Source of the DNA: a virus
Lineage: Duplodnaviria > Caudoviricetes
DNA length: 64,000 nt
Virus record (IMG/VR): IMGVR_UViG_3300037067_026422
Direction: 5' to 3' (one strand)
Each line of letters starts with the position of its first letter. Position 1 is the stretch's first letter. The position numbers and the translations under genes were made by a program. Below are positions 8,581 to 62,444 of the stretch, piece by piece. The notes beneath the pieces were generated by a model that saw only the letters and a list, made by a program, of their open reading frames with translations, ran no database searches and was not told the DNA's origin.

Positions 8581-8826
8581 ATGCCTGCCTATACCATAAA
8601 AGATATGAAGACTTTGGCTTCCATGTCAGCAGATGGTTCCATAGCGAGTGTCTACCTGCCGGATGTGCAATACTCCCCCAGAAAGTTTAAAGATTTTCTG
8701 CTATCAAAGGGTCTCAGGAAAGATGTTAACCTGCTCTTCGATATCCCACTCAAACAGGTAGCTCTTCTCATCAACAAAGGGGAGGTATCCGGATATGTGA
8801 AGTTCAGATTTCAGATAGGCAAATAA
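8581..8826 (+). CDS. PLYIN/WRLxIGK family protein (variant)
   Basis: AYTIKD start; FDIPLKQVALLIN...FRFQIGK end. Confidence 0.75.
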   Translation: MPAYTIKDMKTLASMSADGSIASVYLPDVQYSPRKFKDFLLSKGLRKDVNLLFDIPLKQVALLINKGEVSGYVKFRFQIGK

Positions 8827-8838
8827 AGGACCCACCCT

Positions 8839-9111
8839 ATGAATGAATACACCAAAGAAGATTATACGATTCTTCTCACTATTCTAAAGGATGCTTATAG
8901 AAGTACAGTACGACTAACCAATCAACCTAATCTTATTACATATCTCAACAAGATTATTCTAACCGGATTTCAGGCGCAATCCGGATATCTTAATGCATCT
9001 ACTACCAGACTTATATATCGGGCACCTCTTAACAGAATGCCTACTTTGATCAATGCTCAAAAGACTACCACGAAACTCATTGCCTCATGGAGACTCCAAA
9101 TCGGTAAATGA
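8839..9111 (+). CDS. PLYIN/WRLxIGK family protein
   Basis: EYTKED start; PLNRMPTLIN...IASWRLQIGK end. Confidence 0.8.
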   Translation: MNEYTKEDYTILLTILKDAYRSTVRLTNQPNLITYLNKIILTGFQAQSGYLNASTTRLIYRAPLNRMPTLINAQKTTTKLIASWRLQIGK

Positions 9112-9144
9112 GTTTCTATCATACAACCTGAAAGGATCTCGATC

Positions 9145-9372
9145 ATGAAACGTACCATCAAATTCGTCAGACAGACTACTGAAGATTCAAGTCAGTTCAT
9201 AGCCAGAGTCTTTACTTCACTTAATGACCTTCGTCAGAAATCCTGTACCTTCAACTCCCTGTCGATATCTGTTGAAAGTATTACCGAAGATCCTCTGGCT
9301 CTTATTTATCTTGTTACACCTGATAAAACTTGTAATGCTCTCACCAAGACTCCTGAAAAACTTTCTACTTGA
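9145..9372 (+). CDS. Small hypothetical protein, probable paralog of 261..455
   Basis: AAGGA RBS; shared pattern. Confidence 0.55.
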   Translation: MKRTIKFVRQTTEDSSQFIARVFTSLNDLRQKSCTFNSLSISVESITEDPLALIYLVTPDKTCNALTKTPEKLST

Positions 9373-9377
9373 TTATT

Positions 9378-9406
9378 TTGTAGGATTCATTCTAAAATAG
9401 TATATT
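9378..9406 (+). promoter_or_regulatory. sigma70-like promoter TTGTAG-17-TATATT
   Basis: Exact 17-nt spacing, intergenic. Confidence 0.7.
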
Positions 9407-9441
9407 CCCATAAACTTTGTATGTTATAGGATTGGAGGTCT

Positions 9442-9762
9442 ATGTTATCTACCCCATCATCAGTACGATATACAGTAGAAGATTTAGTAATATTGAGGGA
9501 CGGGCTTACCTGTATCCTGAAAGAACATCCAGCAAATGAAGTGATCAAAAAAGTCAAATCGGCACTGGATGTGATCATCCAGAAGAGGGCCCCGGAACAT
9601 GCCAAGAAATATATCTGTACGGATGACTGTGCAAATTATACCGGAGAAGGCTACAACGCTTCCATCTATGAAGCTCCTCTCTCTTCTCTTCCTAAGATGA
9701 GAATATATGCAGGGTATCTTGGTAAGGCAATAGTGGATTGGCGACTACTACTTAATAAATAA
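9442..9762 (+). CDS. PLYIN/WRLxIGK family protein
   Basis: RYTVEDL; IYEAPLSSLP...IVDWRLLLNK. Confidence 0.75.
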   Translation: MLSTPSSVRYTVEDLVILRDGLTCILKEHPANEVIKKVKSALDVIIQKRAPEHAKKYICTDDCANYTGEGYNASIYEAPLSSLPKMRIYAGYLGKAIVDWRLLLNK

Positions 9763-9782
9763 CCTCTTTCATAAGGAATCTT

Positions 9783-10001
9783 ATGGACCTCAAGCAGGCA
9801 AAAGAAATCTGTGTGGCTCATACCAAATGTACCTGCAAGGCAGAGTCACCTGCTGTCATCAAAAAGTACCCGGATAAAACCTGTCCCTTCCGATTGGATC
9901 CGGTAGGGTGTGGGTTTATGGATTACCCATGTTTCTGGGATGTAGATGTAATGATGATAAAAGTTTCCTTAGGAAATAAGCAAGCAAAGCCTACTACGTG
10001 A
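9783..10001 (+). CDS. Small Cys-rich hypothetical protein
   Basis: AAGGA RBS; C..C..CPF..C..PCFW. Confidence 0.6.
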   Translation: MDLKQAKEICVAHTKCTCKAESPAVIKKYPDKTCPFRLDPVGCGFMDYPCFWDVDVMMIKVSLGNKQAKPTT

Positions 10002-10324
10002 ATCTTTTAATGAAAGGTAAAAATCTTATGAAAAGCAAATGTGCCTGGATACTTGGCAGTATGGTAGTTGTTTTGGTTTTTGCTTTATTATTCGTAGCTC
10101 TTTCTACCCAAACCCAGAAACCAGCTGAGCAAACTATAACTTCCAATAAAAAACTGATTAATCTTCCCGTTAAAAGAAATGGGTATCTGTTACTGGGTTT
10201 GAGAGTTGAAGAAACGATGATTGATTCTTGTGAGTATTTAATAGTGCGAACTCCCACAGGTAATCATTTCACTCTTACTCACAAAGGCAATTGTCAGAGA
10301 TGCTCAAAGGGAAAAAATGACTGA
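9998..10324 (+). CDS. Membrane-anchored IDSCEY/HKGNCxxC protein, paralog of 27707..28027
   Basis: N-terminal TM; IDSCEY...THKGNCQRC; true start may be 10028. Confidence 0.7.
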   Translation: MNLLMKGKNLMKSKCAWILGSMVVVLVFALLFVALSTQTQKPAEQTITSNKKLINLPVKRNGYLLLGLRVEETMIDSCEYLIVRTPTGNHFTLTHKGNCQRCSKGKND

Positions 10325-10607
10325 TATACTAAACAAAAAAATAAGCTCTGCAGATAATAAGAAAGTTAAAAGGGCACCCTCTTCCAAACCCTCAAAGAGG
10401 GTCTTTAAACAAGCCCTGGCTCTTCCTGGAATGGAGAGCCACATCAAGCGACTTAAAGCCTTCTGGAAGTCTCCTATGCCTTCTGATGAGGTTTTGGAGC
10501 GGTGGCTTATTGGGGAAATAGCAAAACAGTTCTATCGAAAGCGATTACTCAAGATGTCTCTTACTGATCTGATTGATCTTTTAAATGATATCAAGGATAA
10601 GTCATGA
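10317..10607 (+). CDS. Hypothetical basic protein
   Basis: Coupled ORF, 96 aa. Confidence 0.6.
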   Translation: MTDILNKKISSADNKKVKRAPSSKPSKRVFKQALALPGMESHIKRLKAFWKSPMPSDEVLERWLIGEIAKQFYRKRLLKMSLTDLIDLLNDIKDKS

Positions 10608-10717
10608 AAGTAAAACTTATTCTTACAGGGATATTTATAGTACTTGTGGGGTTGTCTGCTTTGATATGGTACACTGTATATCATCTAAGTCAAATACATT
10701 AAAAGGAGAGCAATATC

Positions 10718-11545: not shown

Positions 11546-11627
11546 ACAGGTAGAGAAAGTACATAAGGATGCTTCAATGTATGATCGGAAGAGGGACAAA
11601 AAAATACCTTTAGAGGAAGGTACAGAT

Positions 11628-12187: not shown

Positions 12188-12188
12188 A

Positions 12189-12713: not shown

Positions 12714-12974
12714 ATGAATCAAGCCATTATTAGAACAGGTTATGAAAATAGCAGTAGCAGTAGCAGGAGTGGTAGCAGAAGCAGGAGTGGTAGCTGGAGC
12801 TATAGCAGAAGCAGGAGTGGTAGCAGGAGCTGTAGTAGTAGCAGTAGGGGTAGCTGGAGCAGTAGCAGGAGCAGTAGCTGGAGTGGTAGCAGGAGCAGGA
12901 GGGGTAGTGGTAGCAGGAGTGGTAGTGGTAGCAGGAGGGTTAGCTATAGCGGTAGCCGGAGTGGTGCTAACTGA
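12714..12974 (+). CDS. (X-Ser)n low-complexity peptide, copy 3 (leader MNQAIIRTGYENS)
   Basis: Upstream AGAGGYATAATTTT and leader shared with copies 1 and 2; 86 aa. Confidence 0.7.
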   Translation: MNQAIIRTGYENSSSSSRSGSRSRSGSWSYSRSRSGSRSCSSSSRGSWSSSRSSSWSGSRSRRGSGSRSGSGSRRVSYSGSRSGAN

Positions 12975-13084
12975 AGTGCCAAAGTATCATATGGAACGGT
13001 TAGGTTCTCCTTGAGTAGTTCTTCAGGTGGATTGACATCCTGCAGGAAGAACAATTTTACTCTTCATTTTTTAAGGGGAGTGGT

Positions 13085-13435
13085 ATGGTTACTGAGCAAG
13101 CAGAAAGTATTACTTTCTTTAATACAGTTAGAAGGATAAAAACTATCCCAACGAATACTCCGATATATCTTACTTGCTCCTACCCAAATCAGGATGATGT
13201 GGAAATGTTGGTGATCCCACAGTACTATAGCAATGGGTTCTTCCACTGTACAGTACTTGCTGTAGGGAGCCGGACACCCCCGGTAAAGTATGCCCCTGAA
13301 AAAGGTCAGGTAGATGAACAGCTAATCCGGGTCGAACAGATTATTAAATGGAAACCCTGGCGCAAAGAAGATAACTTCTTGCACTTCGGTAGAGGGTACG
13401 TTTCCGAAAAGTATATAAGCATGTTACTCAATTAG
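13085..13435 (+). CDS. Hypothetical protein
   Basis: GGGGAG RBS; C-terminus loosely resembles that of the 1431 ORF. Confidence 0.65.
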   Translation: MVTEQAESITFFNTVRRIKTIPTNTPIYLTCSYPNQDDVEMLVIPQYYSNGFFHCTVLAVGSRTPPVKYAPEKGQVDEQLIRVEQIIKWKPWRKEDNFLHFGRGYVSEKYISMLLN

Positions 13436-14136
13436 TGATAAAAAATATGATCAAGCTAAAGAAAGAAAGATATCTTGCAGACAATCTTCCCGCTTATGAA
13501 GAAAAGCGTTGGCAGGCCGTTCTCCTATATAAACGGATTATACAGGGGCCTTGGAAGAACTTATTCTCGGAGATGGGTAAATTAAAGGAAGTGTGGGGAT
13601 ACTATGAGGGTAAAAAGGTATACTTCAGCTATGATGGGTATGGCTTAGCTCATTATAGCCCAATAGAGGGTAATGACAGAGCGGACATATTTGTAAAGTG
13701 CCTGGATAAAAAAGAACTTCCCCTGTACATAAATTCACCCTATGAAATAGTACAGACAGCCATTAAAGCGAGGATGGTTGGTGATAAAAGGTATGCCCCT
13801 GTTGTTAGACGCGACGACCTCATTGAGTTACATTACAAATGGGAGAATAGAGCAAGACATGTGCGTAAAGTAATCGAACTTTATGATAATATAATGGGGG
13901 AGCATCTGTTTAGCCTGTACCACCGAATGATTGACAGTATAGCCTTTACCAGAAAGGTACTTACCCTGACTTTAAACAATCGTACATATGTTTACCAGAA
14001 TAGCACTTTCCTGGTCAAGCCAGAACAGGAAAACTTGCAGGTTACTCTTGACGTGCTTAAAAATGATGCAAAGATCCTGGAAGCAAAAACTCTTGTACCT
14101 GATACGATCTTTACCAACTTCAAGCCAAATGGATGA
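13435..14136 (+). CDS. Hypothetical protein with internal ELPLYIN motif
   Basis: LDKKELPLYINSPYEIVQTAIKARM. Confidence 0.7.
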   Translation: MIKNMIKLKKERYLADNLPAYEEKRWQAVLLYKRIIQGPWKNLFSEMGKLKEVWGYYEGKKVYFSYDGYGLAHYSPIEGNDRADIFVKCLDKKELPLYINSPYEIVQTAIKARMVGDKRYAPVVRRDDLIELHYKWENRARHVRKVIELYDNIMGEHLFSLYHRMIDSIAFTRKVLTLTLNNRTYVYQNSTFLVKPEQENLQVTLDVLKNDAKILEAKTLVPDTIFTNFKPNG

Positions 14137-14987: not shown

Positions 14988-15314
14988 ATGAAGATACTGG
15001 AGATTATTATCGCTACAATTGTTTTGGTAGCAACTACTCTGATGATTTGCAAAATGAATCGGGGGGCATCCTTGATGTCTCAGGATGCCCGGGCTAACGA
15101 TGCTGCGTATATAGTCGCGGAAAAGAAATTCACTGAACTATCTATCCAGGTCTTTCCAGTTGCTATCGGGGTGGATACAGCATTTGTTAATGAAGCCCCA
15201 TATATTCGTAACTGGGCTATATCTGACACAGGCCATATCCGTAGAGCAGTTGTTACGGTGACCTGGATGTCACTGGGGGGTAGTAGAAGTACAAATTTTT
15301 CAAGGGGTCTGTAA
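14988..15314 (+). CDS. PilV-like minor pilin, without a prepilin leader
   Basis: LEIIIATIVL hydrophobic helix; A..AEKK.EL; Y.R.W.I; V.VTVTW. Confidence 0.6.
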   Translation: MKILEIIIATIVLVATTLMICKMNRGASLMSQDARANDAAYIVAEKKFTELSIQVFPVAIGVDTAFVNEAPYIRNWAISDTGHIRRAVVTVTWMSLGGSRSTNFSRGL

Positions 15315-16426
15315 TGAGAAATCAGAAGGGTGTAACTTTAGTAGAGCTATTAGTTTATATGGCTCTGTTTGGTATCGTGGCGCTCATCATCCAAAGTCAG
15401 TACTCGAAAATGGCAAGTATTATCCACAGAGAAAAACAAATCACTGGTATCCAAATGGATTCAAGGAGTATCCTGTCTATCCTCCTCAAGGAAATCCAGA
15501 ATACTGGATGTAAAATTTATTTTACAGATGCCTCTGATGGTTTCAATAAAAATATCGATGCACTATCCTTCCAGAATGATTCATCTTCTTTTGTCTGCGA
15601 AGAAGGTAATCCAAGTGATACCCTAAAAATTTATAAGACTATACTTACAAGTACCGGAGGTTACGAAAGATCCGACTCTGTTAAATTTTATCTTACTGGA
15701 GACAGCTTAATTAAGGAACGGGATAATAAAAAAGCTAACATCAGAGGAGGTGTTTATGCCCTTCAGTTTCAGTATGGTGTAACTGCCAGTGATTCAATGA
15801 TCTATGACCTGTATCCTTTACCAAGTCCAGCAAACTGGATGGTATCCAATATGGAGGGTACTGCTCCTACTGTTCAGGCTCAGGGTAATTTGACTCAGGT
15901 AGCTTTTACCGGAGCTGCAACAGGTAGGGTTTATTATCTCAACTCTTTTTCTATTGCTAAGGACCAACAACTTAAAATATCCCTCTGGTTATCCCCCAAT
16001 ACATCCTTTGTAAATAATTTTGATTCTGCATACTGTTCGGTTTATGACGGGGATGTCAGAGTTGGATATGATAAGTTCATCCCAAATGGTTTAAAAACGG
16101 ATGTGATAGTTAGTGTTCCACAAAAAAGTGGGCTTAAAATAGCTATAGATTATTGGGTGAAAGGTTCCGGGGCTATTCTTATAAACGGTGCTGAGATTCG
16201 CAGATTCAATGATGGTGAATATACTTGGCTTGATAATCCCCCGCAAAATAAAAGGAAACTGGTTAAAGCAATCAAAGTCAATATCCTCACCCGAAGCAAA
16301 GCAAATGCCGGAGTTATAGTTGATACCCCTGTAACAGTTGCCAATATTTCTTACCCGAGATCTGGTAAGTTTCTTTGGCGTTCTTTCGAAGAAGTCATCT
16401 TCACACCAAACAATGGAATTTTTTAA
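15314..16426 (+). CDS. PilW-like minor pilin with prepilin N-methylation motif
   Basis: MRNQKG|VTLVELLVYMALFGIVALII (G-1, E+5); ALQFQYG; VKAIKVNILTRS; C-terminal PNN. Confidence 0.8.
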   Translation: MRNQKGVTLVELLVYMALFGIVALIIQSQYSKMASIIHREKQITGIQMDSRSILSILLKEIQNTGCKIYFTDASDGFNKNIDALSFQNDSSSFVCEEGNPSDTLKIYKTILTSTGGYERSDSVKFYLTGDSLIKERDNKKANIRGGVYALQFQYGVTASDSMIYDLYPLPSPANWMVSNMEGTAPTVQAQGNLTQVAFTGAATGRVYYLNSFSIAKDQQLKISLWLSPNTSFVNNFDSAYCSVYDGDVRVGYDKFIPNGLKTDVIVSVPQKSGLKIAIDYWVKGSGAILINGAEIRRFNDGEYTWLDNPPQNKRKLVKAIKVNILTRSKANAGVIVDTPVTVANISYPRSGKFLWRSFEEVIFTPNNGIF

Positions 16427-18719: not shown

Positions 18720-18748
18720 TTGATTATCTCATTACAAAAAAGTATATT
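18720..18748 (+). promoter_or_regulatory. sigma70-like promoter TTGATT-17-TATATT
   Basis: Exact 17-nt spacing with AAAAAAG tract. Confidence 0.75.
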
Positions 18749-18800
18749 TTATAGGGTCACTCATGAATATGCTATTAACGCATTATTAGGAGGAAGCACT

Positions 18801-20024
18801 ATGCTTAAACTTCAATTTGGTAGAAACGTGCTCAGGAAGCTCGTTGATTTTGCTACCGGTACCCATAGCTGGAGTGCCCCTGATGTGTCCATGCTTTCCG
18901 ATCCCTCCAAAGAGGAATCGGATCTGGAAGCCAGCTATGAACCTCCTATCAATCCTGCTGATCTTGAACGAGTGATATCCCGATATGGTATCCTTGGAAA
19001 GTTTAAAGATTATCATATTGGTTCAGCGGTTACTACCTATGAGGTAAGTGTACCAGTTGGTACCAAGCTCAATAGCTTTATGCGATGTCGGGATGATATT
19101 GCAAGAGATCTTGGTACTCCTTCTCTTCGCATCATTCAGTCGGTGAACAACTCTTCATTAGTCGGATTCGAGGTGGAGAACAAAGATCGATACAATGTTT
19201 ATTTCAAAAATATGTTCCTTAATATCCCCACAGGGCTCAAGCTCCCAGTTATCCTTGGAGAAGATACCTACGGAAATAAAACCTATGTTGATCTTACTAC
19301 AATGCCTCATCTGCTTGTAGCTGGTCGTACTGGTTCAGGTAAATCTGTGTTCATCAATACACTAATCACAACACTGATCTGCAAGTATACCCCCGAACAG
19401 CTCCAGCTGATCATGGTGGATCCTAAGCAGGTAGAGTTTGCAGCATATGAAAATCTTCCTCATTTATTCAGTAAAGACGGCAACACTCTTAATATTGCTT
19501 CAGATGTGTCGGAAGCCCGAGAGTTAGTCTCTACTGCAGTAGAGGAAATGGAACGTAGGTTCGATCTTATGAAGGAAGTCAAGGCTAAGAAGCTTGATGA
19601 TTATAATGACAGGGTTGCTGAAAAATTGCCCTATATCGTTTTCATCATTGATGAGTTCGCGGACCTGATGCTTATGGGTTCTTCTGCAGAACGAAAAGAA
19701 GTAGAAAATAATATCGTTCGCATAGCTCAAAAAGCAAGAGCGGTAGGTATCCATCTTGTATTATCTACGCAGAAACCCATGGCACAAATCATGACAACAC
19801 TCATCAAAGCCAATATGCCAGCAAGGATTTCCTTTAGCGTATCAAGTCTGAGTGACTCAAGGGTGATACTTGATGAAGGCGGAGCAGAAGCATTAACCGG
19901 TAATGGAGATTTGCTGTTCAGAGACCCCCTCGCCAAAAGCGAGTACACCCGGATCAAACGAGTCCAGGCACCATGGATCTCGGATGAAGATATCGAAAGT
20001 CTTATAAACCAAGGGAGTAACTAA
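18801..20024 (+). CDS. ftsK: FtsK/SpoIIIE DNA translocase motor domain (no TM or gamma domain)
   Basis: MPHLLVAGRTGSGKS Walker A, VDPKQVE, IIDEFADLM Walker B, ARAVGIHLVLSTQKP, SRVILDEGGAEALTGNGDLL; AGGAGG RBS before ATG 18801. Confidence 0.92.
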   Translation: MLKLQFGRNVLRKLVDFATGTHSWSAPDVSMLSDPSKEESDLEASYEPPINPADLERVISRYGILGKFKDYHIGSAVTTYEVSVPVGTKLNSFMRCRDDIARDLGTPSLRIIQSVNNSSLVGFEVENKDRYNVYFKNMFLNIPTGLKLPVILGEDTYGNKTYVDLTTMPHLLVAGRTGSGKSVFINTLITTLICKYTPEQLQLIMVDPKQVEFAAYENLPHLFSKDGNTLNIASDVSEARELVSTAVEEMERRFDLMKEVKAKKLDDYNDRVAEKLPYIVFIIDEFADLMLMGSSAERKEVENNIVRIAQKARAVGIHLVLSTQKPMAQIMTTLIKANMPARISFSVSSLSDSRVILDEGGAEALTGNGDLLFRDPLAKSEYTRIKRVQAPWISDEDIESLINQGSN

Positions 20025-20644: not shown

Positions 20645-21649
20645 ATGGAATTCTCAAAAATATTTACACACGGCTGTCTTGTTGATCTTAACGTCAGCAT
20701 GTGGACTGCAAAAAAGAAACTGGATGCAGAAGATCTTGGCATCGAGGATACAGAAGTCAGCGCTGCTTTTTCTTTAGGCAACAAGATGCTTATACCCTAT
20801 GAAGTTATTCATGAGCTTAAGTCTTTAGAGAATGCGGCTCGACATATTTTGATTCAATTCAGTTTTCCCTGTGAGTTTGGGAATGCACGGTTTGTTCCCA
20901 AGAAAAGATTCGTGGAGTTCTCGGGAGTCATGGATGCAATCATTAAAAAGTTCAACTATAAAGCGGATGATCTCGCCAGAAACTATTTAACCTACCGCAT
21001 TGATATGCGTGAGGAATATTTATTGGCTGCGGGTGAAGCCTACGATCGCGCTAAAGCCCTTAACCCCGAGTTCGACCTACCAAGGGATACCTTCATCAAC
21101 ACGTTCCTGGAACGCATTGAAAAAGCGTATCCGGAAGAAGCTGATATCCGGGCAAAGTTCCGCATGGAATATATCGTGTTCCAGGTAGCTCTCCCGGATA
21201 TCTCCCAGGCAAGCTACGGGGATCTCATTGAGGATAGTGAAAAAATCAAACTCATGGAACAAGCTTATAGAACTTCCCTGAACAGGAAGGTTGAATCGTT
21301 CTTTGAAAAGATCACTGGAGATCTTCGGGGTAAAGCCTCTGCTACCCTTAAGCGATTTCTTGATAGACTTAATGGTAATTTTGATATCCGTAGCTCCTCC
21401 ATCGAATCAGTAATAAATATGATCGATGAATATGAGAAGATGAACTTCATAGGTGATAATACTTTCCTCAAGCACCTACAGATGTTCCGGATTAAATGTC
21501 TTAATTATAACTCGAAGATGTTGTCCTCCGACAAAGTAGTCAGGGAAACAGTGAAGCGAGAACTCAAAGCAATAATAGAGATCGCTACTGATCAAGCTTC
21601 TATCAATGAACTTGTATTAAGATACAAGCAGGGTATCGATATACTGTAA
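20645..21649 (+). CDS. DUF3150-like protein
   Basis: LVDLNVSMWTAKKKL...LGNKMLIP...GNARFVP...YP...IRAKF, pattern recognised from memory. Confidence 0.6.
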   Translation: MEFSKIFTHGCLVDLNVSMWTAKKKLDAEDLGIEDTEVSAAFSLGNKMLIPYEVIHELKSLENAARHILIQFSFPCEFGNARFVPKKRFVEFSGVMDAIIKKFNYKADDLARNYLTYRIDMREEYLLAAGEAYDRAKALNPEFDLPRDTFINTFLERIEKAYPEEADIRAKFRMEYIVFQVALPDISQASYGDLIEDSEKIKLMEQAYRTSLNRKVESFFEKITGDLRGKASATLKRFLDRLNGNFDIRSSSIESVINMIDEYEKMNFIGDNTFLKHLQMFRIKCLNYNSKMLSSDKVVRETVKRELKAIIEIATDQASINELVLRYKQGIDIL

Positions 21650-29272: not shown

Positions 29273-29546
29273 GTGTTCCCTGCACACGCGGGGATGAACC
29301 GTTTACACATGAGATCCATACGACTAAGGTGCTGTGTTCCCTGCACACGCGGGGATGAACCGTATTATCCTGCGCATGTTCGCCCTCCATTCCGGTGTTC
29401 CCTGCACACGCGGGGATGAACCGATCTTACTTTAATCAAACAAAATAGGAGGATTGTGTTCCCTGCACACGCGGGGATGAACCGCCAACTTGAATCAGTT
29501 TTTATGTCTGTTCTTGGGTGTTCCCTGCACACGCGGGAATGAACTG
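29273..29546 (+). CRISPR. Type I-E-like mini CRISPR array, 5 repeats / 4 spacers, no cas genes in window
   Basis: Repeat GTGTTCCCTGCACACGCGGGGATGAACCG (29 nt) at 29273, 29334, 29395, 29456 and degenerate at 29518 (two substitutions); spacers 32, 32, 32, 33 nt. Confidence 0.97.
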
Positions 29547-29635
29547 AAATTTAAACGGAATTTCTGACCTGGCTTGACAGGTATGATTTCATACAGGATC
29601 GGCTTTTAAACTTAATACTCCTTCTAAAATTTTTA

Positions 29636-29673: not shown

Positions 29674-30057
29674 ATGAAAACACTACTCAACATAACATAT
29701 ACCGAAAGTGAGAGGAAACTCTTATACTCCTCTCTTGCCCCCGTAACGCAGCCCTGGCATCTGGCTACACTTAAAGAGGCGTGTGAACAACTTACTACAG
29801 GAGACAACTGTCCTGAACGAATCCTCATCTTCAGATCCCTGCCGGACTCAGTAGAAAAAGATCTTTTCAGTTATGAACCATATGGAGAAGCTAAAACCTT
29901 TGTAATATTTTTAAATAAGCAATATCTTGAATTTAACTTTTGGACCAGACACCTAAAAAATTTTCTGTTCCAGTCTAAACTATCAGAAATGCCTTTGTAT
30001 CTGAATATGTATTTTATGAATTATCTTGCAGCTTGGAGATTAAGAATAGCCAAGTAA
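29674..30057 (+). CDS. PLYIN/WRLxIGK family protein
   Basis: TYTESE; LSEMPLYLN...LAAWRLRIAK. Confidence 0.8.
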   Translation: MKTLLNITYTESERKLLYSSLAPVTQPWHLATLKEACEQLTTGDNCPERILIFRSLPDSVEKDLFSYEPYGEAKTFVIFLNKQYLEFNFWTRHLKNFLFQSKLSEMPLYLNMYFMNYLAAWRLRIAK

Positions 30058-36724: not shown

Positions 36725-37467
36725 TGAAAGCTCTTATACACGGGAACACCACAAGAAAAGGTAACATAGATCGAGTAAGCATATCTGATCCAGACTGTGC
36801 TATAGCTTACTGTGGGCTTGAAGAATTAGGGGCTGATACAGATATCATGGCTACCTGGATAGGCTTGTCCAAAGAGGAATTAGAATCATATGGTGTCTGT
36901 ATAGGTGGAGTCAACCAATGTAGACATGCTCTGTTTAAAATGGGCATCAAAAATTATGATATCCCCTGCTATCCGCTGAATCTCCAACATTTCATGGAAA
37001 GAAAAATAGAGATAACTACTATAGCAGAAGTCACTAATAAAATACTGAAACGAGAGTATACGGAGCCTAAATTTGTGAAGTCTATAGGACCGAAAGTTTT
37101 TACTCCCTTCAATACCAGTGAGATCGATTTAGATTTCTTATACTCTGTTGGAGAACAGGAACCGGTCTATGTGTCCGATATTGTAAGATTTATGACTGAG
37201 TGGCGGGTATATGTTAAAAATGGAGAGATAATAAAGCTGTGTCATTACTCTGGTAACCCTCGGGTGTTCCCTAATATTCTTATGATCAAAGTGATGATCT
37301 CAAATTTTCAAGGTCCTTGTTTTTATGCCCTCGATGTGGGTATCATAGGAACTACTACAGTACTGGTAGAAATAAATGACGGATATTCTCTTGGTAACTA
37401 TGGCTTATATCCGAGTGAGTATGCAGAGCTGCTTACTATGCGATGGAAAGAACTTACCGGAAAATGA
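36724..37467 (+). CDS. ATP-grasp protein (DUF4343/R2K-like)
   Basis: FVKS, EWRVYV, ALDVG, LVEINDGYSLGNYG. Confidence 0.78.
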   Translation: MKALIHGNTTRKGNIDRVSISDPDCAIAYCGLEELGADTDIMATWIGLSKEELESYGVCIGGVNQCRHALFKMGIKNYDIPCYPLNLQHFMERKIEITTIAEVTNKILKREYTEPKFVKSIGPKVFTPFNTSEIDLDFLYSVGEQEPVYVSDIVRFMTEWRVYVKNGEIIKLCHYSGNPRVFPNILMIKVMISNFQGPCFYALDVGIIGTTTVLVEINDGYSLGNYGLYPSEYAELLTMRWKELTGK

Positions 37468-37802
37468 TCAGATACAGCCCGGAACTAATACAGGAATTGT
37501 TTTTGTTCATTGTAGAGCATAAAATCTATGATGGCTCTATAGTAGAGATGTTTTTAACCAGAAAAACTTTTAACGGTTGTAGAATCAATATCTCTGACAT
37601 AGAAGCACAAGTAGTATTCAATAGAATGTTAAATTATTCTCATACCTGGATATCTCAGAAATTCCCCACCAAACTTCAAAAGAAAAATATGCAGGATATC
37701 AGGAAAGTGATCTTTGAGCTATCTCTTAATGATATGCCCAAGCACATCAATGATCCCCTAACCGGACCAATAGCATCCTGGCGATTGAACAAAGGGATAT
37801 AA
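37464..37802 (+). CDS. PLYIN/WRLxIGK family protein
   Basis: RYSPE; LNDMPKHIND...IASWRLNKGI. Confidence 0.8.
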   Translation: MIRYSPELIQELFLFIVEHKIYDGSIVEMFLTRKTFNGCRINISDIEAQVVFNRMLNYSHTWISQKFPTKLQKKNMQDIRKVIFELSLNDMPKHINDPLTGPIASWRLNKGI

Positions 37803-37804: not shown

Positions 37805-38149
37805 ATGATAAAATATACAGAGAAGCAGTGGGAATGCTTATACAAAGAAGTGCTATTTGAACAGGTCAATCTTATATCCCTTGAAGCTTTTATGATAAAG
37901 AAAAATTGGTATGAAAAAAGACATATAAAAAATCTTAATACTGATCAGTATGCCGTGTACAATAAGTTACTGAATATCCAACCTAAAAAAATAGATAGAA
38001 AGAACAGATACTACTCTCAGGAGGAATATGACAATCTCTGTAAAATCAGGGAGATAATATTTAAAGTAGAATGGAAGAAACTTCCTCTCTATATAAATGA
38101 TCCTATACTCAATCCAATAATAGCATGGCGATTAAGAAGCAATATCTAA
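37805..38149 (+). CDS. PLYIN/WRLxIGK family protein
   Basis: KYTEKQ; KLPLYIND...IIAWRLRSNI. Confidence 0.8.
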   Translation: MIKYTEKQWECLYKEVLFEQVNLISLEAFMIKKNWYEKRHIKNLNTDQYAVYNKLLNIQPKKIDRKNRYYSQEEYDNLCKIREIIFKVEWKKLPLYINDPILNPIIAWRLRSNI

Positions 38150-38829
38150 TGATAGAACAATTTATGAAAATTAAGGATAAAGAAACACTGTACTGTCCAA
38201 GATGTACATCCCCACTTATACTTGGTCAGGGATATCGCAGATATCAGACTCTTGTGGAACATGTCTGTGGAGATGATAGAATTTCTGAAAAAGAATATTA
38301 TATATGTTCTTCTGAAAGGTGCCCAACAAGAATATCGGATTCCTTTTGGGATTGGTATGGTAGTTCCTATATAAGTAACTCCTGTGATCCTAAAATATTT
38401 ATTATGGAATGCTCCTCGGCCCTGAATTCAGGTCAAAGACAATTTGATATCTCCAATAAGCATATAGATATACAACTTCTACATCTTATATGGTTTCGAC
38501 TGATTCTCGAAAAATACCGTGTCCCTGATCAAATGGGTGTTAATATACTTGGATACAAGTATAAATTTAAAGGACTGGTTAAATCCGGTGCTGAGTGGTG
38601 CTATTATACTCCTGGAATAAAAATGTTCTTTTTCTGCCTAAATAAATTTAATAATGCTCGGAAAAAACTGCAGGAAAACCCTGAAAGCACGTGGAGTGAA
38701 CAGCAGATGCTTCAGGAACTCAAATGCCCAAAAGAAGACAAACGATGGTGGAAGATGCTATCCGCATGGTGGCTCAATCTTCTACACCCGGGACTCAAAG
38801 AGAAGCTACAATGCAAAAAGAAGATCTGA
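38149..38829 (+). CDS. Hypothetical protein with N-terminal zinc motif
   Basis: CPRC...EHV...CSSERC. Confidence 0.68.
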   Translation: MIEQFMKIKDKETLYCPRCTSPLILGQGYRRYQTLVEHVCGDDRISEKEYYICSSERCPTRISDSFWDWYGSSYISNSCDPKIFIMECSSALNSGQRQFDISNKHIDIQLLHLIWFRLILEKYRVPDQMGVNILGYKYKFKGLVKSGAEWCYYTPGIKMFFFCLNKFNNARKKLQENPESTWSEQQMLQELKCPKEDKRWWKMLSAWWLNLLHPGLKEKLQCKKKI

Positions 38830-39155
38830 CAAAAATAGACCTTCTTGACATAGCAATAGAAATGCATGAATCAATCCCTACTTTATTTTCTCTTTTGAAT
38901 ATCATCTTAAGAATAAGACCCACTGTTTTCCCCTTTAAATTTACATTGGAAGATATTGTGGAACCTCATATATTCTTTGACTTATTAGAGGAGGCAGCAC
39001 AGAATAGCATAGAAACTACTAATTTTATTCAACCTAAAACAGCCAAAGCAATCCTTGATGTCCTTCTCCATGAAGACCTAAATAAAATGCCCCTCCATAT
39101 CAATGATCCATTAATAGGCTGCTTAGCTATATGGCGATTAAAAAAAGGCATATAG
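38811..39155 (+). CDS. PLYIN/WRLxIGK family protein
   Basis: LNKMPLHIND...LAIWRLKKGI. Confidence 0.78.
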   Translation: MQKEDLTKIDLLDIAIEMHESIPTLFSLLNIILRIRPTVFPFKFTLEDIVEPHIFFDLLEEAAQNSIETTNFIQPKTAKAILDVLLHEDLNKMPLHINDPLIGCLAIWRLKKGI

Positions 39156-40030: not shown

Positions 40031-40474
40031 ATGGAAAAGAGTCTTTTACAGGAATATATCGGAGAAAGAAAATGGGCAGACTTTGAGTGGTGCCCGATCT
40101 GTAATTATCCCTGTGGCATCAGTGGAGTCCCCTTAGGCACCTGTGCCATAGTACCAGATGAGATATTCAAGGTACTTCCTTTTACCGTAAGAATTCTGCG
40201 CTATTACTGCTTATGCAACAGCTGCATCGATATACTTGCCAATCGTGTGGCACTCACTACTAGTATATGTGATCTTCCTCTATATATAAATTTTACAGGG
40301 TATCTCGATACTAAAGTGCTATGCCGAAGTTTAAAGGATTTCAAAAAGTATGAACACCGCCTTTACATAAATGGCTCAGGGGATTTCAGCTATCTTGATA
40401 CTGCCAACAACAGTGTCAGAAGAGCCATTAAAGATCTTATGGCAGGAAGGTCCCTTAAATTTGACTTTTCCTAA
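40031..40474 (+). CDS. Zinc-binding protein with internal DLPLYIN motif
   Basis: CPIC, CNSC, ICDLPLYIN. Confidence 0.65.
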   Translation: MEKSLLQEYIGERKWADFEWCPICNYPCGISGVPLGTCAIVPDEIFKVLPFTVRILRYYCLCNSCIDILANRVALTTSICDLPLYINFTGYLDTKVLCRSLKDFKKYEHRLYINGSGDFSYLDTANNSVRRAIKDLMAGRSLKFDFS

Positions 40475-57025: not shown

Positions 57026-57403
57026 ATGGATGCTTTTAAAAACTTTGAGGGCACAATTAATAATTCAATAGTGGAAGATTTTTCCAAAGCATATGTCATG
57101 GGATTCTCTATGCTGATCTCCGATGTTAATATGGCAATGTCCCTTTTATCCCTATGTCAGCACTCCTTTAACGGAGATTTTGATAAAGCCTGTCGATTTA
57201 TGGATGAATTACTTGAGGATCTGCATGAAAGGCTATTAAAAAAGGTGCTCATCGATTTTACAACTATGGAAGATGATAAGATAGCACTATCAATGTGCAG
57301 AGACAGGATACAACAGGATTTTAATGAGATTAAAGAGTCTATCCTTAAAACAGCAATAGTGTTAGACACCAAAGTAAAAAAGTTTGAAAAAGATGGGGCA
57401 TAA
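57026..57403 (+). CDS. Hypothetical protein
   Basis: GAGGAG RBS. Confidence 0.62.
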   Translation: MDAFKNFEGTINNSIVEDFSKAYVMGFSMLISDVNMAMSLLSLCQHSFNGDFDKACRFMDELLEDLHERLLKKVLIDFTTMEDDKIALSMCRDRIQQDFNEIKESILKTAIVLDTKVKKFEKDGA

Positions 57404-57737
57404 GTTTTCCGAAAGATATACTTATGAAGAATTGATAACCCTTATTGATCTATTCAAAGTTGTTGGGGAAGTCAAACAGCTTGTAAAAAGCCACCCCGGG
57501 GATATACTAAGAGAAGTCTATTATGTAAAACCTACTTTAAAGATATCCATAACAGAGAATGGCTTTAATTTAGAAAGTATCCCGACTGATGAACATGATA
57601 TTAAAAATAATACAATTCGTGCTGAAAGGTTAAAGATGATTCAAGAAACCTCCTTAAATAATATGCCTCTGTATATAAATGATAAGAATGAGATAATAAG
57701 AACAATAGCAACCTGGCGATTGAATATAGGTAAGTAA
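57393..57737 (+). CDS. PLYIN/WRLxIGK family, tandem copy 1
   Basis: RYTYEEL; NNMPLYIN...IATWRLNIGK. Confidence 0.82.
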   Translation: MGHKFSERYTYEELITLIDLFKVVGEVKQLVKSHPGDILREVYYVKPTLKISITENGFNLESIPTDEHDIKNNTIRAERLKMIQETSLNNMPLYINDKNEIIRTIATWRLNIGK

Positions 57738-57762
57738 CTTTTAAAGAATTAATGTTCTAAAA

Positions 57763-58110
57763 ATGATTAATAGATACTATGATTACGAATATATTGAACT
57801 TATCAGAATGTTTGATACGGAAGATTTAGCTCCGCACTCTTTTTGTCGTATTACCAACCCATACTTCTGGAAATTCATGAGTTGGCTGCTTTTTAAACAA
57901 ATTATATTCACGAAAGCTGAACATCTACCAGCGATAGCACTCTTTATCTATCATACAACTAAAACTATGAACTTTCAAAATATTCAATATCGTTTAGGAA
58001 ATTTATGGTGTACCTTTATAATGCCTATTAATAAAGCTTCCCTGTATATATCGAATAAAGATATCAGAAAACAGATAATAAGTAGATGGAGATTAAAGGT
58101 TGGAAGATGA
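57763..58110 (+). CDS. PLYIN/WRLxIGK family, tandem copy 2
   Basis: YYDYEY; PINKASLYIS...ISRWRLKVGR. Confidence 0.8.
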   Translation: MINRYYDYEYIELIRMFDTEDLAPHSFCRITNPYFWKFMSWLLFKQIIFTKAEHLPAIALFIYHTTKTMNFQNIQYRLGNLWCTFIMPINKASLYISNKDIRKQIISRWRLKVGR

Positions 58111-58418
58111 TAAAGTATGATAAAAAAGATATAGATCTTTTATTTAATCAGTTCATGTCTAATAGTGTCACCGAAGGTAAGGGATTAAAAGGTAATGAGG
58201 GAGCTTGTACTTATATTACTATACAGGGAAAGAAGGTGGCTATCTCCTGTGATACCCTTATAAAGATAGTTTTTGGTAATCCCACCATAAGAGATTCTAT
58301 AGATAGGGAAGTTTTTAATATTTATGCTCTTATACACGTGATTCCAATAGAACATGTACCACTTTTCTTAAACATCATACCTGAAGTAGCCAAGTGGCGC
58401 TTGGAGATCAGAAAATGA
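58107..58418 (+). CDS. PLYIN/WRLxIGK family, tandem copy 3
   Basis: ATGA overlap; KYDKKD; HVPLFLN...VAKWRLEIRK. Confidence 0.82.
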   Translation: MIKYDKKDIDLLFNQFMSNSVTEGKGLKGNEGACTYITIQGKKVAISCDTLIKIVFGNPTIRDSIDREVFNIYALIHVIPIEHVPLFLNIIPEVAKWRLEIRK

Positions 58419-58720
58419 ACTCATATACTAACGAAGAAATTAACTTATTACTATCAGAGTTTCCAAGACTACGCAATAATATCTTAGTAGGCAGCACAGG
58501 ATATATAGTAGAAAACTCACTCTTTATGAGTTCTGTGCTGTTAGATCCGGCGTTAGACCCTACTGAAATTCTTCCCTTTTATTCCGATATTGATATCGGA
58601 ATAAAAAAAGAGTTATCCATAATAAGAGATCTTATTTATTACGTGCCCATACATCAAGTACCCCTATATATAAATATTTGTCCTAACATAGCTTCATGGA
58701 GATTAAAAATAGGAAAATGA
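58415..58720 (+). CDS. PLYIN/WRLxIGK family, tandem copy 4
   Basis: ATGA overlap; SYTNEE; QVPLYIN...IASWRLKIGK. Confidence 0.82.
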   Translation: MNSYTNEEINLLLSEFPRLRNNILVGSTGYIVENSLFMSSVLLDPALDPTEILPFYSDIDIGIKKELSIIRDLIYYVPIHQVPLYINICPNIASWRLKIGK

Positions 58721-59049
58721 TCACATACGCACCAGGAGAAAAAGATATTCTATTGAATAGTATTACCAATCGTTTTGGTATAGGTTTTGAGAATGCTGGT
58801 TTAAATAGCCCAGAATCTCAACCGTATATCTTTTTTAAACTTTATGGGAGTCTTTGTTGTATGTCTATGTACCTACTTACTAAAATCGTACTATATGATC
58901 CTGTAAGACACCCAAATTTACACAACGAGATACATGGGTCATTTAAAGAGGTATGGAATTTGATTCATTTTATACCTTTAAATAGAGTCCCATTATACAT
59001 TAACACTATCCCTGATATTGCAAGTTGGAGATTAAAAATTGGTAAATAA
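58717..59049 (+). CDS. PLYIN/WRLxIGK family, tandem copy 5
   Basis: ATGA overlap; RVPLYIN...IASWRLKIGK. Confidence 0.82.
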   Translation: MITYAPGEKDILLNSITNRFGIGFENAGLNSPESQPYIFFKLYGSLCCMSMYLLTKIVLYDPVRHPNLHNEIHGSFKEVWNLIHFIPLNRVPLYINTIPDIASWRLKIGK

Positions 59050-59392
59050 AATTATTAAGAAAATCATACTCTCTATCTGGAGGTGTAAAAGGAGTGATAC
59101 AAAACCCATATATCCAAAAAAAGAGATAGCAGATTTGTATCTGTCTTTTCTTAAAAGACCCGTAGATGAATTGTCTACCCGTATCACTTTAAATGGTGGC
59201 CATTATTTAATTAGATATCTTGATCTTTATACAATATTGAACAGTAACCCATCAGGAAATGACTGTGTTTTGTATACGAGAGCAGAACAAGAGTTATATA
59301 GGATGCTCTTTGATGTCCCGCTAAAACAGGTTCCTCTATACATCAACACACATCCGGAAATAGCTCAATGGAGATTAAGAATTGGAATATGA
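59039..59392 (+). CDS. PLYIN/WRLxIGK family, tandem copy 6 (start uncertain)
   Basis: IYPKKE; QVPLYIN...IAQWRLRIGI. Confidence 0.75.
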   Translation: MVNKIIKKIILSIWRCKRSDTKPIYPKKEIADLYLSFLKRPVDELSTRITLNGGHYLIRYLDLYTILNSNPSGNDCVLYTRAEQELYRMLFDVPLKQVPLYINTHPEIAQWRLRIGI

Positions 59393-59730
59393 ATTACTAT
59401 AGCTTACTTGAGATAGAGCATCTGGTTGAAGATCTTGATGTATTAATAATAACCTCTTCACCAAAAGTGGATTGTTTTGGGTTAACATGTAATAGTATAA
59501 AAAAGTGCATAGTACAATCAACTTTTTCTTATATGTTCACACACGGGGGTAAGTTTTCTATGGGATTAAGGGACAAAAGTATAAATTACTTTGACCCTAC
59601 ATTATATCTTTCTGAGTCGGATATTAAAGATATAGGTGATTTTATTTTTCTTGAGAAGCTTAATAATGTACCCCTATTTATAAATGTCTATCCAGAAATA
59701 GCTACATGGCGATTGAGAATAGGGAAATGA
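59389..59730 (+). CDS. PLYIN/WRLxIGK family, tandem copy 7
   Basis: ATGA overlap; NVPLFIN...IATWRLRIGK. Confidence 0.82.
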   Translation: MNYYSLLEIEHLVEDLDVLIITSSPKVDCFGLTCNSIKKCIVQSTFSYMFTHGGKFSMGLRDKSINYFDPTLYLSESDIKDIGDFIFLEKLNNVPLFINVYPEIATWRLRIGK

Positions 59731-60068
59731 ACTCATATAATAAAAAAGAATTACGGATTTTAATACGGGGGCTTCCTAATTATACCCTTGCAATAACTAA
59801 TATTAACTGTATTGCAATAACACTTTGGGGAATTATGAAGCTTATTAAATATAATACTCTTATCAGCATACTTGATGCTAAAGGAAAATGGATCGTTTCT
59901 CAGGGCGATATTAATAATATAAGATATGTTATACCAAAGCATAAGGCGGAATTTCATGATTTAGAAGGTTTGAATGATGCTATCTTTAAATTAGAATTAA
60001 AAATAGTGCCCTTATTCCTAAATGATTTCCCGGAAATCGTCAGGTGGAGATTGAGCATAGGTAAATGA
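59727..60068 (+). CDS. PLYIN/WRLxIGK family, tandem copy 8
   Basis: ATGA overlap; SYNKKE; IVPLFLN...IVRWRLSIGK. Confidence 0.82.
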   Translation: MNSYNKKELRILIRGLPNYTLAITNINCIAITLWGIMKLIKYNTLISILDAKGKWIVSQGDINNIRYVIPKHKAEFHDLEGLNDAIFKLELKIVPLFLNDFPEIVRWRLSIGK

Positions 60069-60403
60069 CTTTTAAGTTTTATTATAAAAATATCTATAAC
60101 GAGGATGATTTGCTATCTTTAGCTAGTATACTAAGTAGCAGGATAAAACAAGGTAGGTATTCCATAGCTGGTATAAATATGCTATGCAAGCTCATTCTTT
60201 ATAGTCTTAACAACAAAAAGAAGTCAATTGATAGTATTATAAGCTCTTATATTATATATAAACTGAGCAGTAGCTTATTTTAAACTATATCCTTACTGGT
60301 ATTAATTTTTATATTTCCATTAAGGAAAATGCCCCTATACATAAATGACAGTAATACATTAAAACAAGTTTTGAGCATTTGGAGATTGAGCATAGGTAAA
60401 TAA
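60065..60403 (+). pseudogene. PLYIN/WRLxIGK family, tandem copy 9, interrupted by an in-frame TAA
   Basis: TAA at 60281-60283; same frame continues TISLLVLIFIFPLRKMPLYINDSNTLKQVLSIWRLSIGK*. Confidence 0.8.
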
Positions 60404-60427
60404 TATTACATAGAAGGAGGCTTTATA

Positions 60428-61846
60428 ATGGCTAAATTTCAGGTAGAGAAAAGGTATGATAATTCAAATGAAGGTTTTACTGAAACCCTAAAATATTATG
60501 TTATGCATCAAGCTAATGTCTTGACAAATCATAATAAATTTTATCTTGAAGAGTTGCAAAAGCACCCGGATGGAAGATACCGTATCTTCACACATTATGG
60601 GCGGCTCAGCATCTCCAACATCTATGAAGTTCGGGCAGAAGCTGGTGGTAAACCTTGCTATGACCTGGCTGAGATAGAGAAGGAATTTGAAGCCATCCAT
60701 AAAAAGAAGCTTTCCGGCAAATCAGTCACAAACCCCGATACAGGGGAGAAAGAAAAAGAATGCTATGTCGATGTGGATGTCGTCAGCCCCCAGGTTGGGA
60801 GTGAGAACATCCGCGGTAAAGCCGAAGTAAAGAAAACTGTAACCACCAAGCTGGCGGTGGACACTACTGCTTATGACCCTTTAGTTGGGAAGTTACTTGA
60901 TCAGTTAATTGAAGAAAATGTTCACTCCATAACCAGTATGACCAGTATCAAATTTACTGCCAATGGCTTTGCTACGGAATTGGGGCCTGTTACTATTCAA
61001 CATGTAGATAAAGCAAAAAAAGTCCTCGACGATCTCAATGATCAGATGGATAAGAACGGTAATATGGATCCTGATAACAAGAACGTCCAGAAACTTAACT
61101 CTCTATTCTTTTCTCTCATTCCAAAGCCATTCTCCAGAAAAATATCCACAGATGACATGATTCTGGGGGCACAGAAGCTGCAGGACGAATACAATATTTT
61201 GGACCAGTTGGCTACTGGGGTAAGTATGGGTGCAGCTATGAGCCAAAATACCGCAGCAAAAATGAATGCTCTTGGTACTGATATCGAAATCCTGAAAGAC
61301 AAAAAGGAATATGACCGTATTGTGCGATATGTTGAAAGCAGTAAAGCTGACAATCATCGTGGATCGAATGTCTGGGGATATAGGGTAAAACAGATATTCA
61401 AAATCAGGATACCCGAAGAGCGCTCAAGACATGAGGCAGTCCTCAAAAAGTATGGTAATGTCGAAGAAGTGTTCCATGGCAGCGCAAACTCAAATTTACT
61501 TAGTATAATTAAAGGTGGTTTAATTATACCAAAAAGCAACGCCCCTCATGTCTGTGGTCGTGCCTTCCATGATGGTGTTTATGGTGCAATAAATAGTACA
61601 AAAAGTTTAAATTATAGTGTTGGTTATTGGGGCGGTCGAAGAAGTACCTATGCTAATAACTTTTTGTTCCTGGCGGATTTTGCCATGGGAAACACTTACA
61701 TTACAGACTCTGGTAAACCTAATGGCCCCCCTTCAGGATATGATAGCATATGGGCTAAAAAAGGGTACTCGTTATATAATGATGAGCTTATTGTTTACTC
61801 TTTACCCCAGTGTACACTTAAGTATCTTGTAGAAATGATAAAATGA
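60428..61846 (+). CDS. PARP-family ADP-ribosyltransferase (WGR + regulatory + catalytic domains)
   Basis: NHNKFY...HYGR (WGR); LNSLFFSLIP (regulatory); FHGS, GVYGA, KSLNY, YNDELIVY, QCTLKYL (H-Y-E triad); AAGGAGG RBS. Confidence 0.88.
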   Translation: MAKFQVEKRYDNSNEGFTETLKYYVMHQANVLTNHNKFYLEELQKHPDGRYRIFTHYGRLSISNIYEVRAEAGGKPCYDLAEIEKEFEAIHKKKLSGKSVTNPDTGEKEKECYVDVDVVSPQVGSENIRGKAEVKKTVTTKLAVDTTAYDPLVGKLLDQLIEENVHSITSMTSIKFTANGFATELGPVTIQHVDKAKKVLDDLNDQMDKNGNMDPDNKNVQKLNSLFFSLIPKPFSRKISTDDMILGAQKLQDEYNILDQLATGVSMGAAMSQNTAAKMNALGTDIEILKDKKEYDRIVRYVESSKADNHRGSNVWGYRVKQIFKIRIPEERSRHEAVLKKYGNVEEVFHGSANSNLLSIIKGGLIIPKSNAPHVCGRAFHDGVYGAINSTKSLNYSVGYWGGRRSTYANNFLFLADFAMGNTYITDSGKPNGPPSGYDSIWAKKGYSLYNDELIVYSLPQCTLKYLVEMIK

Positions 61847-61893
61847 ATAATATATATCTTCAGTGTAAAGTAAGAAAAAAGGAGAAATAGGCC

Positions 61894-62121
61894 ATGCTTG
61901 ATAGAATAACAATGACTTTTACAAAAAACTATGTCACGGTCAATAAAAAGTATCATTGTAAGAAATGCGGCTTCAGATTCTATCGAAAGAATCGGGACTG
62001 GTTCACTATAAACCCCCTGAGCACCAGTGACTACAATACTGCCCGGGAAGAAAAAAGAAAAGCAATGGAAGTAAAAGTGAGGGAATGTCCAAAATGCAGA
62101 GAAATAGTAATTCCTTCTTAA
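61894..62121 (+). CDS. Small zinc-ribbon protein
   Basis: CKKC...CPKC; AGGAG RBS. Confidence 0.62.
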   Translation: MLDRITMTFTKNYVTVNKKYHCKKCGFRFYRKNRDWFTINPLSTSDYNTAREEKRKAMEVKVRECPKCREIVIPS

Positions 62122-62444
62122 AGAGGTATACAACAAAGGATCTGAGACTTCTGAATGACCTAATCGACCCTATTACCCATAACCTTAATAAGTATTCTGT
62201 TTCTTATTACCCAAACAAAGATAGTAAAGGCACTTTGTTGAACCCTGAACTTATAGCTGAGATGTCTGATCAGGAAGTAGTAAATGCTTTGAATCGAATA
62301 ATACACTTTCTGGCACCAGCTTTTAAAGAAGATATCCTTATAAACATTATGTATATAGAGCCTATGCAAAAAATGCCCCTGTACATAAACAGAGAACTCG
62401 GTATGAGTATTATTGCAAAGTGGAGGCTAATAATAGGAAAATGA
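62085..62444 (+). CDS. PLYIN/WRLxIGK family protein
   Basis: RYTTKDL; QKMPLYIN...IAKWRLIIGK. Confidence 0.8.
   Translation: MSKMQRNSNSFLKRYTTKDLRLLNDLIDPITHNLNKYSVSYYPNKDSKGTLLNPELIAEMSDQEVVNALNRIIHFLAPAFKEDILINIMYIEPMQKMPLYINRELGMSIIAKWRLIIGK

Follow-up and report, generated by a model that had tools for sequence, protein, structure and literature searches.

A 64,000-nucleotide stretch of viral DNA (Duplodnaviria; Caudoviricetes; IMG/VR record IMGVR_UViG_3300037067_026422), referred to here at its full length as the window, carries 18 copies of a gene for a small protein of 80–127 residues, and this family of fixed ends and copy-specific middles is confirmed by the present analysis. Its occurrence is best explained by a phage-restricted family whose copies arose through old tandem duplications within a clade of uncultured huge phages. 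As to what the proteins do, we give roughly an even chance to their being an old, fast-diverging library of binders, in which a constant frame would present copy-specific surfaces for host takeover or counter-defence.

The 18 copies consist of 16 clear members, one divergent member and one with an in-frame TAA codon. A first-pass annotation of the same DNA had proposed a family of about this size with conserved N- and C-terminal motifs, and a regular-expression scan with translations, followed by a profile hidden Markov model (HMM), placed motif-bearing small open reading frames (ORFs) belonging to the family at all of the coordinates it gave. Seventeen of the copies align, and the HMM built from them also recovers a piece on which it was not trained, 60284–60403 (E 9e-11), the C-terminal half of the ninth tandem copy, which lies in the same frame as the ORF at 60065–60283. 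Since one TAA at 60281–60283 splits this frame, the ninth copy is probably a pseudogene. A second HMM, trained for the most part on outside sequences, found 16 window copies and the 60284–60403 fragment again, with the divergent copy at 9442–9762 below threshold; hhalign relates that copy to the family with a probability of 75% across the C-terminal 36 columns.

Members start with the motif MxxYTxEE..L and run into the stop codon with PLxxhPLYIN..IAxWRLxIGK. Position counts across 149 family sequences bear out both motifs, with Y4 in 137, T5 in 107, E/D8 in 128 and L12 in 140 at the N-terminus, and P83 in 144, L84 in 139, N87 in 140, W95 in 146, R96 in all 149 and L97 in 144 at the C-terminus, where G-K is the end of the protein in most. 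Window paralogues have a mean identity of 55% across the last ten residues. The 35–76 residues between the conserved ends had been described as unalignable, and at the pairwise level this is true: among 136 pairs of window paralogues, alignment scores of the middles were no better than those of shuffled sequence (median z −0.17 against 60 shuffles; z>2 in 7% of pairs). The isoelectric point (pI) ranges from 4.8 to 9.7 across family members, which have no common charge.

Comparison at the codon level indicates that the copies are real genes under purifying selection along their whole length, because the codons of the motifs vary, synonymous divergence is even, the ratio of non-synonymous to synonymous substitution rates (dN/dS) is low, and the DNA at the junctions of the array is 60–76% identical, with no long exact repeats. 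The W-R pair is written as TGGAGA, TGGCGA, TGGCGC or TGGAGG, and leucine by five codons. In four unsaturated orthologue pairs from two related contigs, L004 and L007, dS is nearly equal in the last 30 codons (0.58–0.93) and in the middles (0.68–1.16), while dN/dS is 0.08–0.22 in the C-terminal 30 codons and 0.21–0.43 in the middle. Middles and ends, whose comparison had been put forward with the first-pass annotation, both have ratios below 1, with that of the C-terminal 30 codons the lower of the two.

AlphaFold2, supplied with the 149-sequence alignment, predicts a compact alpha/beta domain both for the copy at 58415–58720 (predicted local distance difference test score, pLDDT, 92.3; predicted template-modelling score, pTM, 0.81) and for that at 29674–30057 (pLDDT 81.6, pTM 0.72). 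In both models the N-terminal motif lies in the first helix (residues 6–14 in the former copy, at pLDDT 90–92), and the C-terminus forms three helices, the last two of which are PLYIN and IAxWRLxIGK. The middles differ, one being a hairpin with short helices and the other an extra long helix with three strands. The ends thus appear as helices of one compact domain, and the earlier interpretation of a constant frame with diversified middles is supported as anatomy, whereas its alternative form, in which the ends serve as a docking tag or sorting signal, is disfavoured: in the models (pTM 0.81 and 0.72) the conserved ends are integral helices, not disordered appendages, and a sorting peptide is unlikely because they would be structural elements of one small domain. 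Drawn on a helical wheel, the last helix has its conserved positions 92, 93, 95, 96, 97, 99 and 100 spread over roughly two thirds of its circumference, and the variable positions 91, 94 and 98 leave a narrow exposed stripe, for which reason most of the helix is predicted to be buried. The probable pairing partner of R96 is the conserved E/D8.

The fold is apparently new, and the family is large and phage-specific. The C-terminal HMM matches no characterised domain, in keeping with the earlier failure to recognise a named family, so that the first-pass proposal is not overturned by a match of that kind. Among the 149 members, each Pfam-A family was matched by at most one (best E 0.0026), and the four matches in PHROGs v4 were single and none recurrent; 17 members searched against NCBIfam gave one match (E 0.015), and the family profile against PDB sequences gave a best E of 0.85. 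Readers of ADP-ribose (macro, WWE, PBZ) were absent from the Pfam matches of the 149 members at E≤0.05, and none is listed among the structural matches of the two models. For these same two models, Foldseek against the PDB gave best E values of 3.2 and 0.49, and VIA-align against 48,161 chains gave best Z scores of 3.9 and 3.2. A fold search of BFVD reached a best E of 0.56 and one of the ESM Atlas a template-modelling (TM) score of at most 0.39, and in a protein language-model atlas the nearest clusters, with scores up to 0.89, are unnamed.

An exhaustive profile search of 1.84 billion representatives, clustered at 50% identity, returned 849 family clusters at E≤1e-3; we take this as the reliable count, a word-indexed homologue search having found 9 proteins only. 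The 150 matches listed are all 79–146 residues long with both terminal motifs, and the clusters that were looked up are all metagenomic, with none named. Related huge-phage contigs (up to 282 kb) carry arrays of 5–14 copies, with up to 14 copies per 20 kb. Across contigs, orthologues are 29–76% identical overall (45–76% for most pairs) and keep their middles, while the gene next to the array, which encodes a PARP-like enzyme (hereafter PARP), is 72–82% identical across the same contigs; judged by these identities, the family is evolving faster than the neighbouring PARP. In the tree, paralogues of different contigs interleave and local duplications are few, and the interleaving suggests that the paralogues are old.

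Three tblastn queries of 50,697 GenBank phage records gave no match, and among these records no cultured phage has the family; tblastn against plasmids gave none either, and whole-record profile searches of pT24, LR756511, LR756500 and XacN1 found no family member. In IMG/VR, an alignment-derived pattern gave 40 raw matches with 0 confirmed, and a DNA pattern gave 0. Among 185,579 species, each represented by one genome in a motif scan, members turned up on two short contigs of metagenome-assembled genomes only, and a pattern scan of JGI metagenomes found 9 stretches only, all of them known relatives or short contigs. No fused forms longer than 257 residues were found, in a weak search where candidates were crowded; on L004, a 226–240-residue ORF at 12950–13669 is a natural fusion of two family domains, the first of which lacks the last helix. 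We found no description of the family in the literature.

The function to which we give that even chance would work as follows. The constant frame of the domain would consist of the first helix, with YTxEE..L, together with the two closing helices of PLYIN and IAxWRLxIGK. These helices are probably the hydrophobic core, and would be clasped by contact of the invariant arginine with an acidic residue near the N-terminus. The middle would then form a surface specific to each copy and conserved along each orthologue line, such that the copies together may be a library of small binders or inhibitors, each directed against a different host target in takeover or counter-defence, and expressed as translationally coupled arrays in accessory regions beside genes of ADP-ribosylation. 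We infer the core packing, the binder function and the targets; binders with different targets would fit because the middles are copy-specific and under purifying selection and the pI varies so widely, and host takeover or counter-defence is suggested by the accessory context together with the fast divergence. The neighbouring genes in that context include those for PARP, PARG, NADAR, an ADP-ribosylglycohydrolase, an AcrVA2-like protein and sigma factors. Several points weigh against this binder library. A partner, a time of expression and a phenotype are conjecture; the location in accessory regions is circumstantial evidence, and every context seen belongs to one broad clade; pairwise dN/dS stays below 1 and, among few orthologues, shows no sign of the positive selection expected in an arms race; and contact between the termini, like burial of W95 and R96, is a prediction. 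It could also be that the invariant W, R, N and Y build one functional site common to all copies.

Such a site is central to a first alternative, which we consider unlikely: that the invariant Y4, E8, N87, W95, R96 and K101 are one docking site for a partner shared by all copies, a protein of the phage or host of which the PARP would be the foremost candidate, and that the middles recruit substrates and so retarget ADP-ribosylation. Nine copies stand in tandem at 57393–60403 directly upstream of the PARP gene, and an array occupies the same place beside this 472-residue enzyme on contigs L001, L004, L018 and L026; downstream of PARP there are additional copies, both in the window and on L001, L002/L003, L004, L018 and L026. 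Genes for PARG, NADAR and ADP-ribosylglycohydrolase are also found in the neighbourhood, and the invariance of R96 and W95 exceeds what a core position needs. However, half of the window copies are scattered far from PARP, the array on L014–L016 is flanked by an AcrVA2-like gene and a sigma factor gene, with no PARP in 19 kb, the PARP loci of phages XacN1 and LR756500 lack the family, and the synteny may merely mirror the shared ancestry of one clade. Co-folding of the PARP with P0009 (58415–58720) scored 0.00 in both runs, which speaks neither for nor against binding. In a related and rather unlikely form of the idea, modular targeting, a site built from both termini (the same six residues) would dock all copies on one hub, either the co-transcribed phage PARP or a host hub, while each middle captures a different host protein, making the family a heritable library of adaptors or inhibitors on a new fold. 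From the context, the family may be a library of adaptors or of anti-defence proteins, and its conserved association with a eukaryote-like PARP would make a starting point for experiments on the roles of phage PARPs.

The proteins might otherwise be nucleic-acid-binding regulators, in which the last three helices resemble a helix-turn-helix (HTH), WRLxIGK is the recognition helix for one DNA or RNA element and the middles provide the outputs. We find this rather improbable. Low-ranked structural matches to HTH proteins (KorA, sigma region 4, SANT/Myb, transposase PAI) do occur, the C-terminal helix has a conserved R and K, and sigma factor genes adjoin some arrays; but the Z scores of these matches (2.4–2.8) are far below the level that VIA-align itself regards as meaningful, no Pfam HTH recurs among the 149 members (there is a single MerR_1 match, E 0.003), many members are acidic, and the last helix appears mostly buried.

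It is quite improbable that the family acts as a sponge or sensor of a small molecule, its conserved aromatic, basic and amide residues binding a signal derived from NAD or ADP-ribose, or another nucleotide signal, in the manner of Tad1, Tad2 and Acb2. The size of about 100 residues, the invariant Y, T, E, N, W, R and K and the neighbourhood of ADP-ribose metabolism would suit such a role, yet the sequence and fold searches returned no known sponge, macro or WWE domain, and a single ligand is hard to square with 18 copies of unrelated middles.

Still less do we favour the proposal that these are packaged internal proteins (IPs), with an N-terminus that serves as a capsid-targeting sequence as in phage T4, and that the copies are injected with the DNA to act against host defences. 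T-even IP loci are polymorphic sets of small proteins, and the family N-terminus, which is fixed in position as M-x-x-Y-T-x-E-E, resembles the T4 targeting peptide MKTYQEF. Against this, the model of 58415–58720 places the N-terminal motif in a helix integral to the domain (pLDDT >90) and not in a cleavable leader, the stronger conservation is C-terminal and has no known counterpart in the T4 IPs, no head or protease genes occur near any locus seen, and no conserved (L/I)-x-E cleavage pattern follows the motif. That the ends are instead held constant at the level of DNA, whether by translational coupling, by a promoter or by sites of recombination between cassettes, and not by protein function, is hardly credible: stop and start overlap as ATGA at 6 of the 8 junctions of the array, and the codons of WRLxIGK read in the +1 frame yield spurious MEIKNWKM leaders that gene callers added to some members, but the same C-terminus occurs in scattered copies without an overlapping downstream gene, synonymous codons are free to vary with dS in the C-terminal 30 codons like that in the middles, and the junction DNA has itself diverged. 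On the synonymous-site data and this divergence a DNA-level cause was rejected. A scan of the array for promoters and terminators found no excess over shuffles (39 sites against 33 ± 5).

Giant viruses with expanded multigene families are known, while this family itself is uncharacterised. The jumbo Bacillus phage G has a lineage-specific expansion of about 35 zinc-ribbon copies (PMC7824862). The present family is like such expansions of small proteins in jumbo phages, with tens of paralogues per huge genome that are thought to serve host control, and unlike the zinc ribbons of phage G in that its domain is a different one without zinc ligands, with fixed ends, unrelated middles and ATGA-coupled arrays. 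Among large eukaryotic DNA viruses, the multigene families (MGF) 110 and 360 of African swine fever virus (ASFV) and the ankyrin (ANK)/PRANC proteins of poxviruses form similar tandem arrays of fast-diverging paralogues, and in the latter the variable part selects targets, docking to one host hub being the task of a conserved C-terminal element. The family described here is unrelated to the ASFV and poxvirus proteins in sequence and fold, belongs to a prokaryotic virus, and has its C-terminus in the modelled core of a 100-residue domain, not in a docking domain of its own. The T4 proteins IPI, IPII and IPIII are likewise small phage proteins that are polymorphic but keep a conserved peptide at one terminus, and IPI* is an injected anti-restriction protein; their signal, however, is a cleaved N-terminal leader of about 10 residues, whereas in our family the N-terminal motif is predicted to form a structured helix and conservation is strongest at the C-terminus. 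Small anti-defence proteins (Acr families, Tad1, Tad2, Acb2) share with the family its size, restriction to phages and accessory location, as well as the AcrVA2-like neighbour on L014–L016, but show no sequence or fold match to it, and we know of none of these families at 18 copies per genome.

Huge phages devote much coding space to small genes without known function, and this family is among the larger ones; it combines an unusual anatomy with a confident fold prediction for which no solved match was found. If its middles are target-binding surfaces, the family would amount to a naturally evolved set of small binders that share one scaffold. Such a library could aid the discovery of host targets and defence systems in uncultured phages and possibly serve as a scaffold for engineered binders. 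The copies in the window and the features that accompany them are listed in Table 1. The N-terminal extension of the sixth array copy (59039–59392) has a parallel in the metagenomic member P0027.

Table 1. Coordinates of the family copies, the adjoining PARP gene and two isolated PLYIN elements in the window
Feature	Position	Strand	Basis
Family copy, 81 aa, divergent C-terminus FRFQIGK	8581..8826	+	HMM E 2e-9
Family copy, 90 aa	8839..9111	+	HMM E 6e-17
Divergent family copy, 106 aa, degenerate PLYIN, end WRLLLNK	9442..9762	+	hhalign 75%
Family copy, 127 aa, about 125 nt 3' of CRISPR-like mini-array; second structure model	29674..30057	+	HMM, AlphaFold2
Family copy, 112 aa, end NKGI	37464..37802	+	Profile-search member P0003, HMM
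Family copy, 114 aa, end RSNI	37805..38149	+	Member P0005, HMM
Family copy, 114 aa, end KKGI	38811..39155	+	Member P0007, HMM
Family copy, 107 aa	48667..48990	+	Member P0015, HMM
Tandem array copy 1, 114 aa	57393..57737	+	Member P0011, HMM
Tandem array copy 2, 115 aa; 66% identical to L001 orthologue	57763..58110	+	HMM, tree
Tandem array copy 3, 103 aa, start overlaps previous stop (ATGA)	58107..58418	+	P0004, HMM
Tandem array copy 4, 101 aa, ATGA overlap; first structure model	58415..58720	+	P0009, AlphaFold2
Tandem array copy 5, 110 aa, ATGA overlap	58717..59049	+	Alignment, HMM
Tandem array copy 6, 117 aa, TTG start, N-terminal extension	59039..59392	+	P0008, HMM
Tandem array copy 7, 113 aa, ATGA overlap	59389..59730	+	P0001, HMM
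Tandem array copy 8, 113 aa, ATGA overlap	59727..60068	+	P0006, HMM
Tandem array copy 9, in-frame TAA 60281-60283; N half YNEDDLLSL, C half PLYIN..WRLSIGK	60065..60403	+	HMM, translation
PARP-like enzyme, 472 aa, PARP regulatory and catalytic domains	60428..61846	+	Domain match, synteny
Family copy, 119 aa, 240 nt 3' of PARP; next gene begins at ATGA overlap	62085..62444	+	HMM
Isolated PLYIN preceded by L, in unrelated 233-aa ORF 13435-14136	13720..13734	+	C-terminal HMM, hhalign
Isolated PLYIN preceded by L, in unrelated 147-aa ORF 40031-40474	40277..40291	+	C-terminal HMM, hhalign

The first-pass annotation had also noted PLYIN or variants of it in four ORFs outside the family. Two of these hold, those at 13435 and 40031, in which the hexapeptide LPLYIN occurs above chance (2 observed against 0.02 expected, P ~5e-4) and which score 10.7 and 8.1 bits with the C-terminal HMM, where reversed decoys reach at most 6.3; for 1431 and 7030, the variants are not distinguishable from decoys. 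The similarity of the two ORFs to the family is confined to 15–18 columns, with hhalign probabilities of 50% for 13435 and 30% for 40031, and a homologue search with the former found only itself.

The window is coded almost entirely on the + strand, has about 39% G+C and forms part of a 238,919-bp metagenomic contig. Its recognisable genes, of phage-like or accessory kind, encode a WGR-DNA ligase, an RNA ligase, an FtsK-like ATPase, a DUF3150 protein, a sigma-like factor and the PARP. One conserved protein has its closest relatives in the Tenacibaculum jumbo phage pT24, a 595-kb uncultured phage and the Lak phages, and we have therefore treated the contig as that of a huge phage. The PARP has an apparent H-Y-E triad of H350, Y385 and E453 (by eye in the alignment), and its identity of 72–82%, seen across six huge-phage contigs, falls to about 30% with the PARPs of Xanthomonas phage XacN1 and some Klebsiella phages. 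The ATP-dependent DNA ligase at 1826–2884 carries a fused N-terminal WGR domain, WGR being a DNA-break-sensing domain of PARPs.

Upstream of the family copy at 29674–30057, by about 125 nt, lies a cas-less CRISPR-like mini-array (29273–29547) of five 30-nt repeats, GTGTTCCCTGCACACGCGGGGATGAACCG, at a spacing of 61–62 nt. The repeat is presumably type I-E-like, and the mini-array might point to the CRISPR type of the host. A protein with a type IV pilin-like N-terminal methylation motif (15314–16426), an FtsK/SpoIIIE-type ATPase (18720–20024) and the DUF3150 protein (20645–21649) are clustered, an arrangement that is unusual for a phage and reminiscent of conjugative elements. Elsewhere, a homologue of ribosomal protein L7/L12 and a rhomboid protease are encoded close to the array of L002/L003 (19556–19921 and 16836–17363), and on L015, a contig with a nine-copy array, a TnpB/Cas12f-like (OrfB_IS605) gene at 1–200 adjoins DUF3150.

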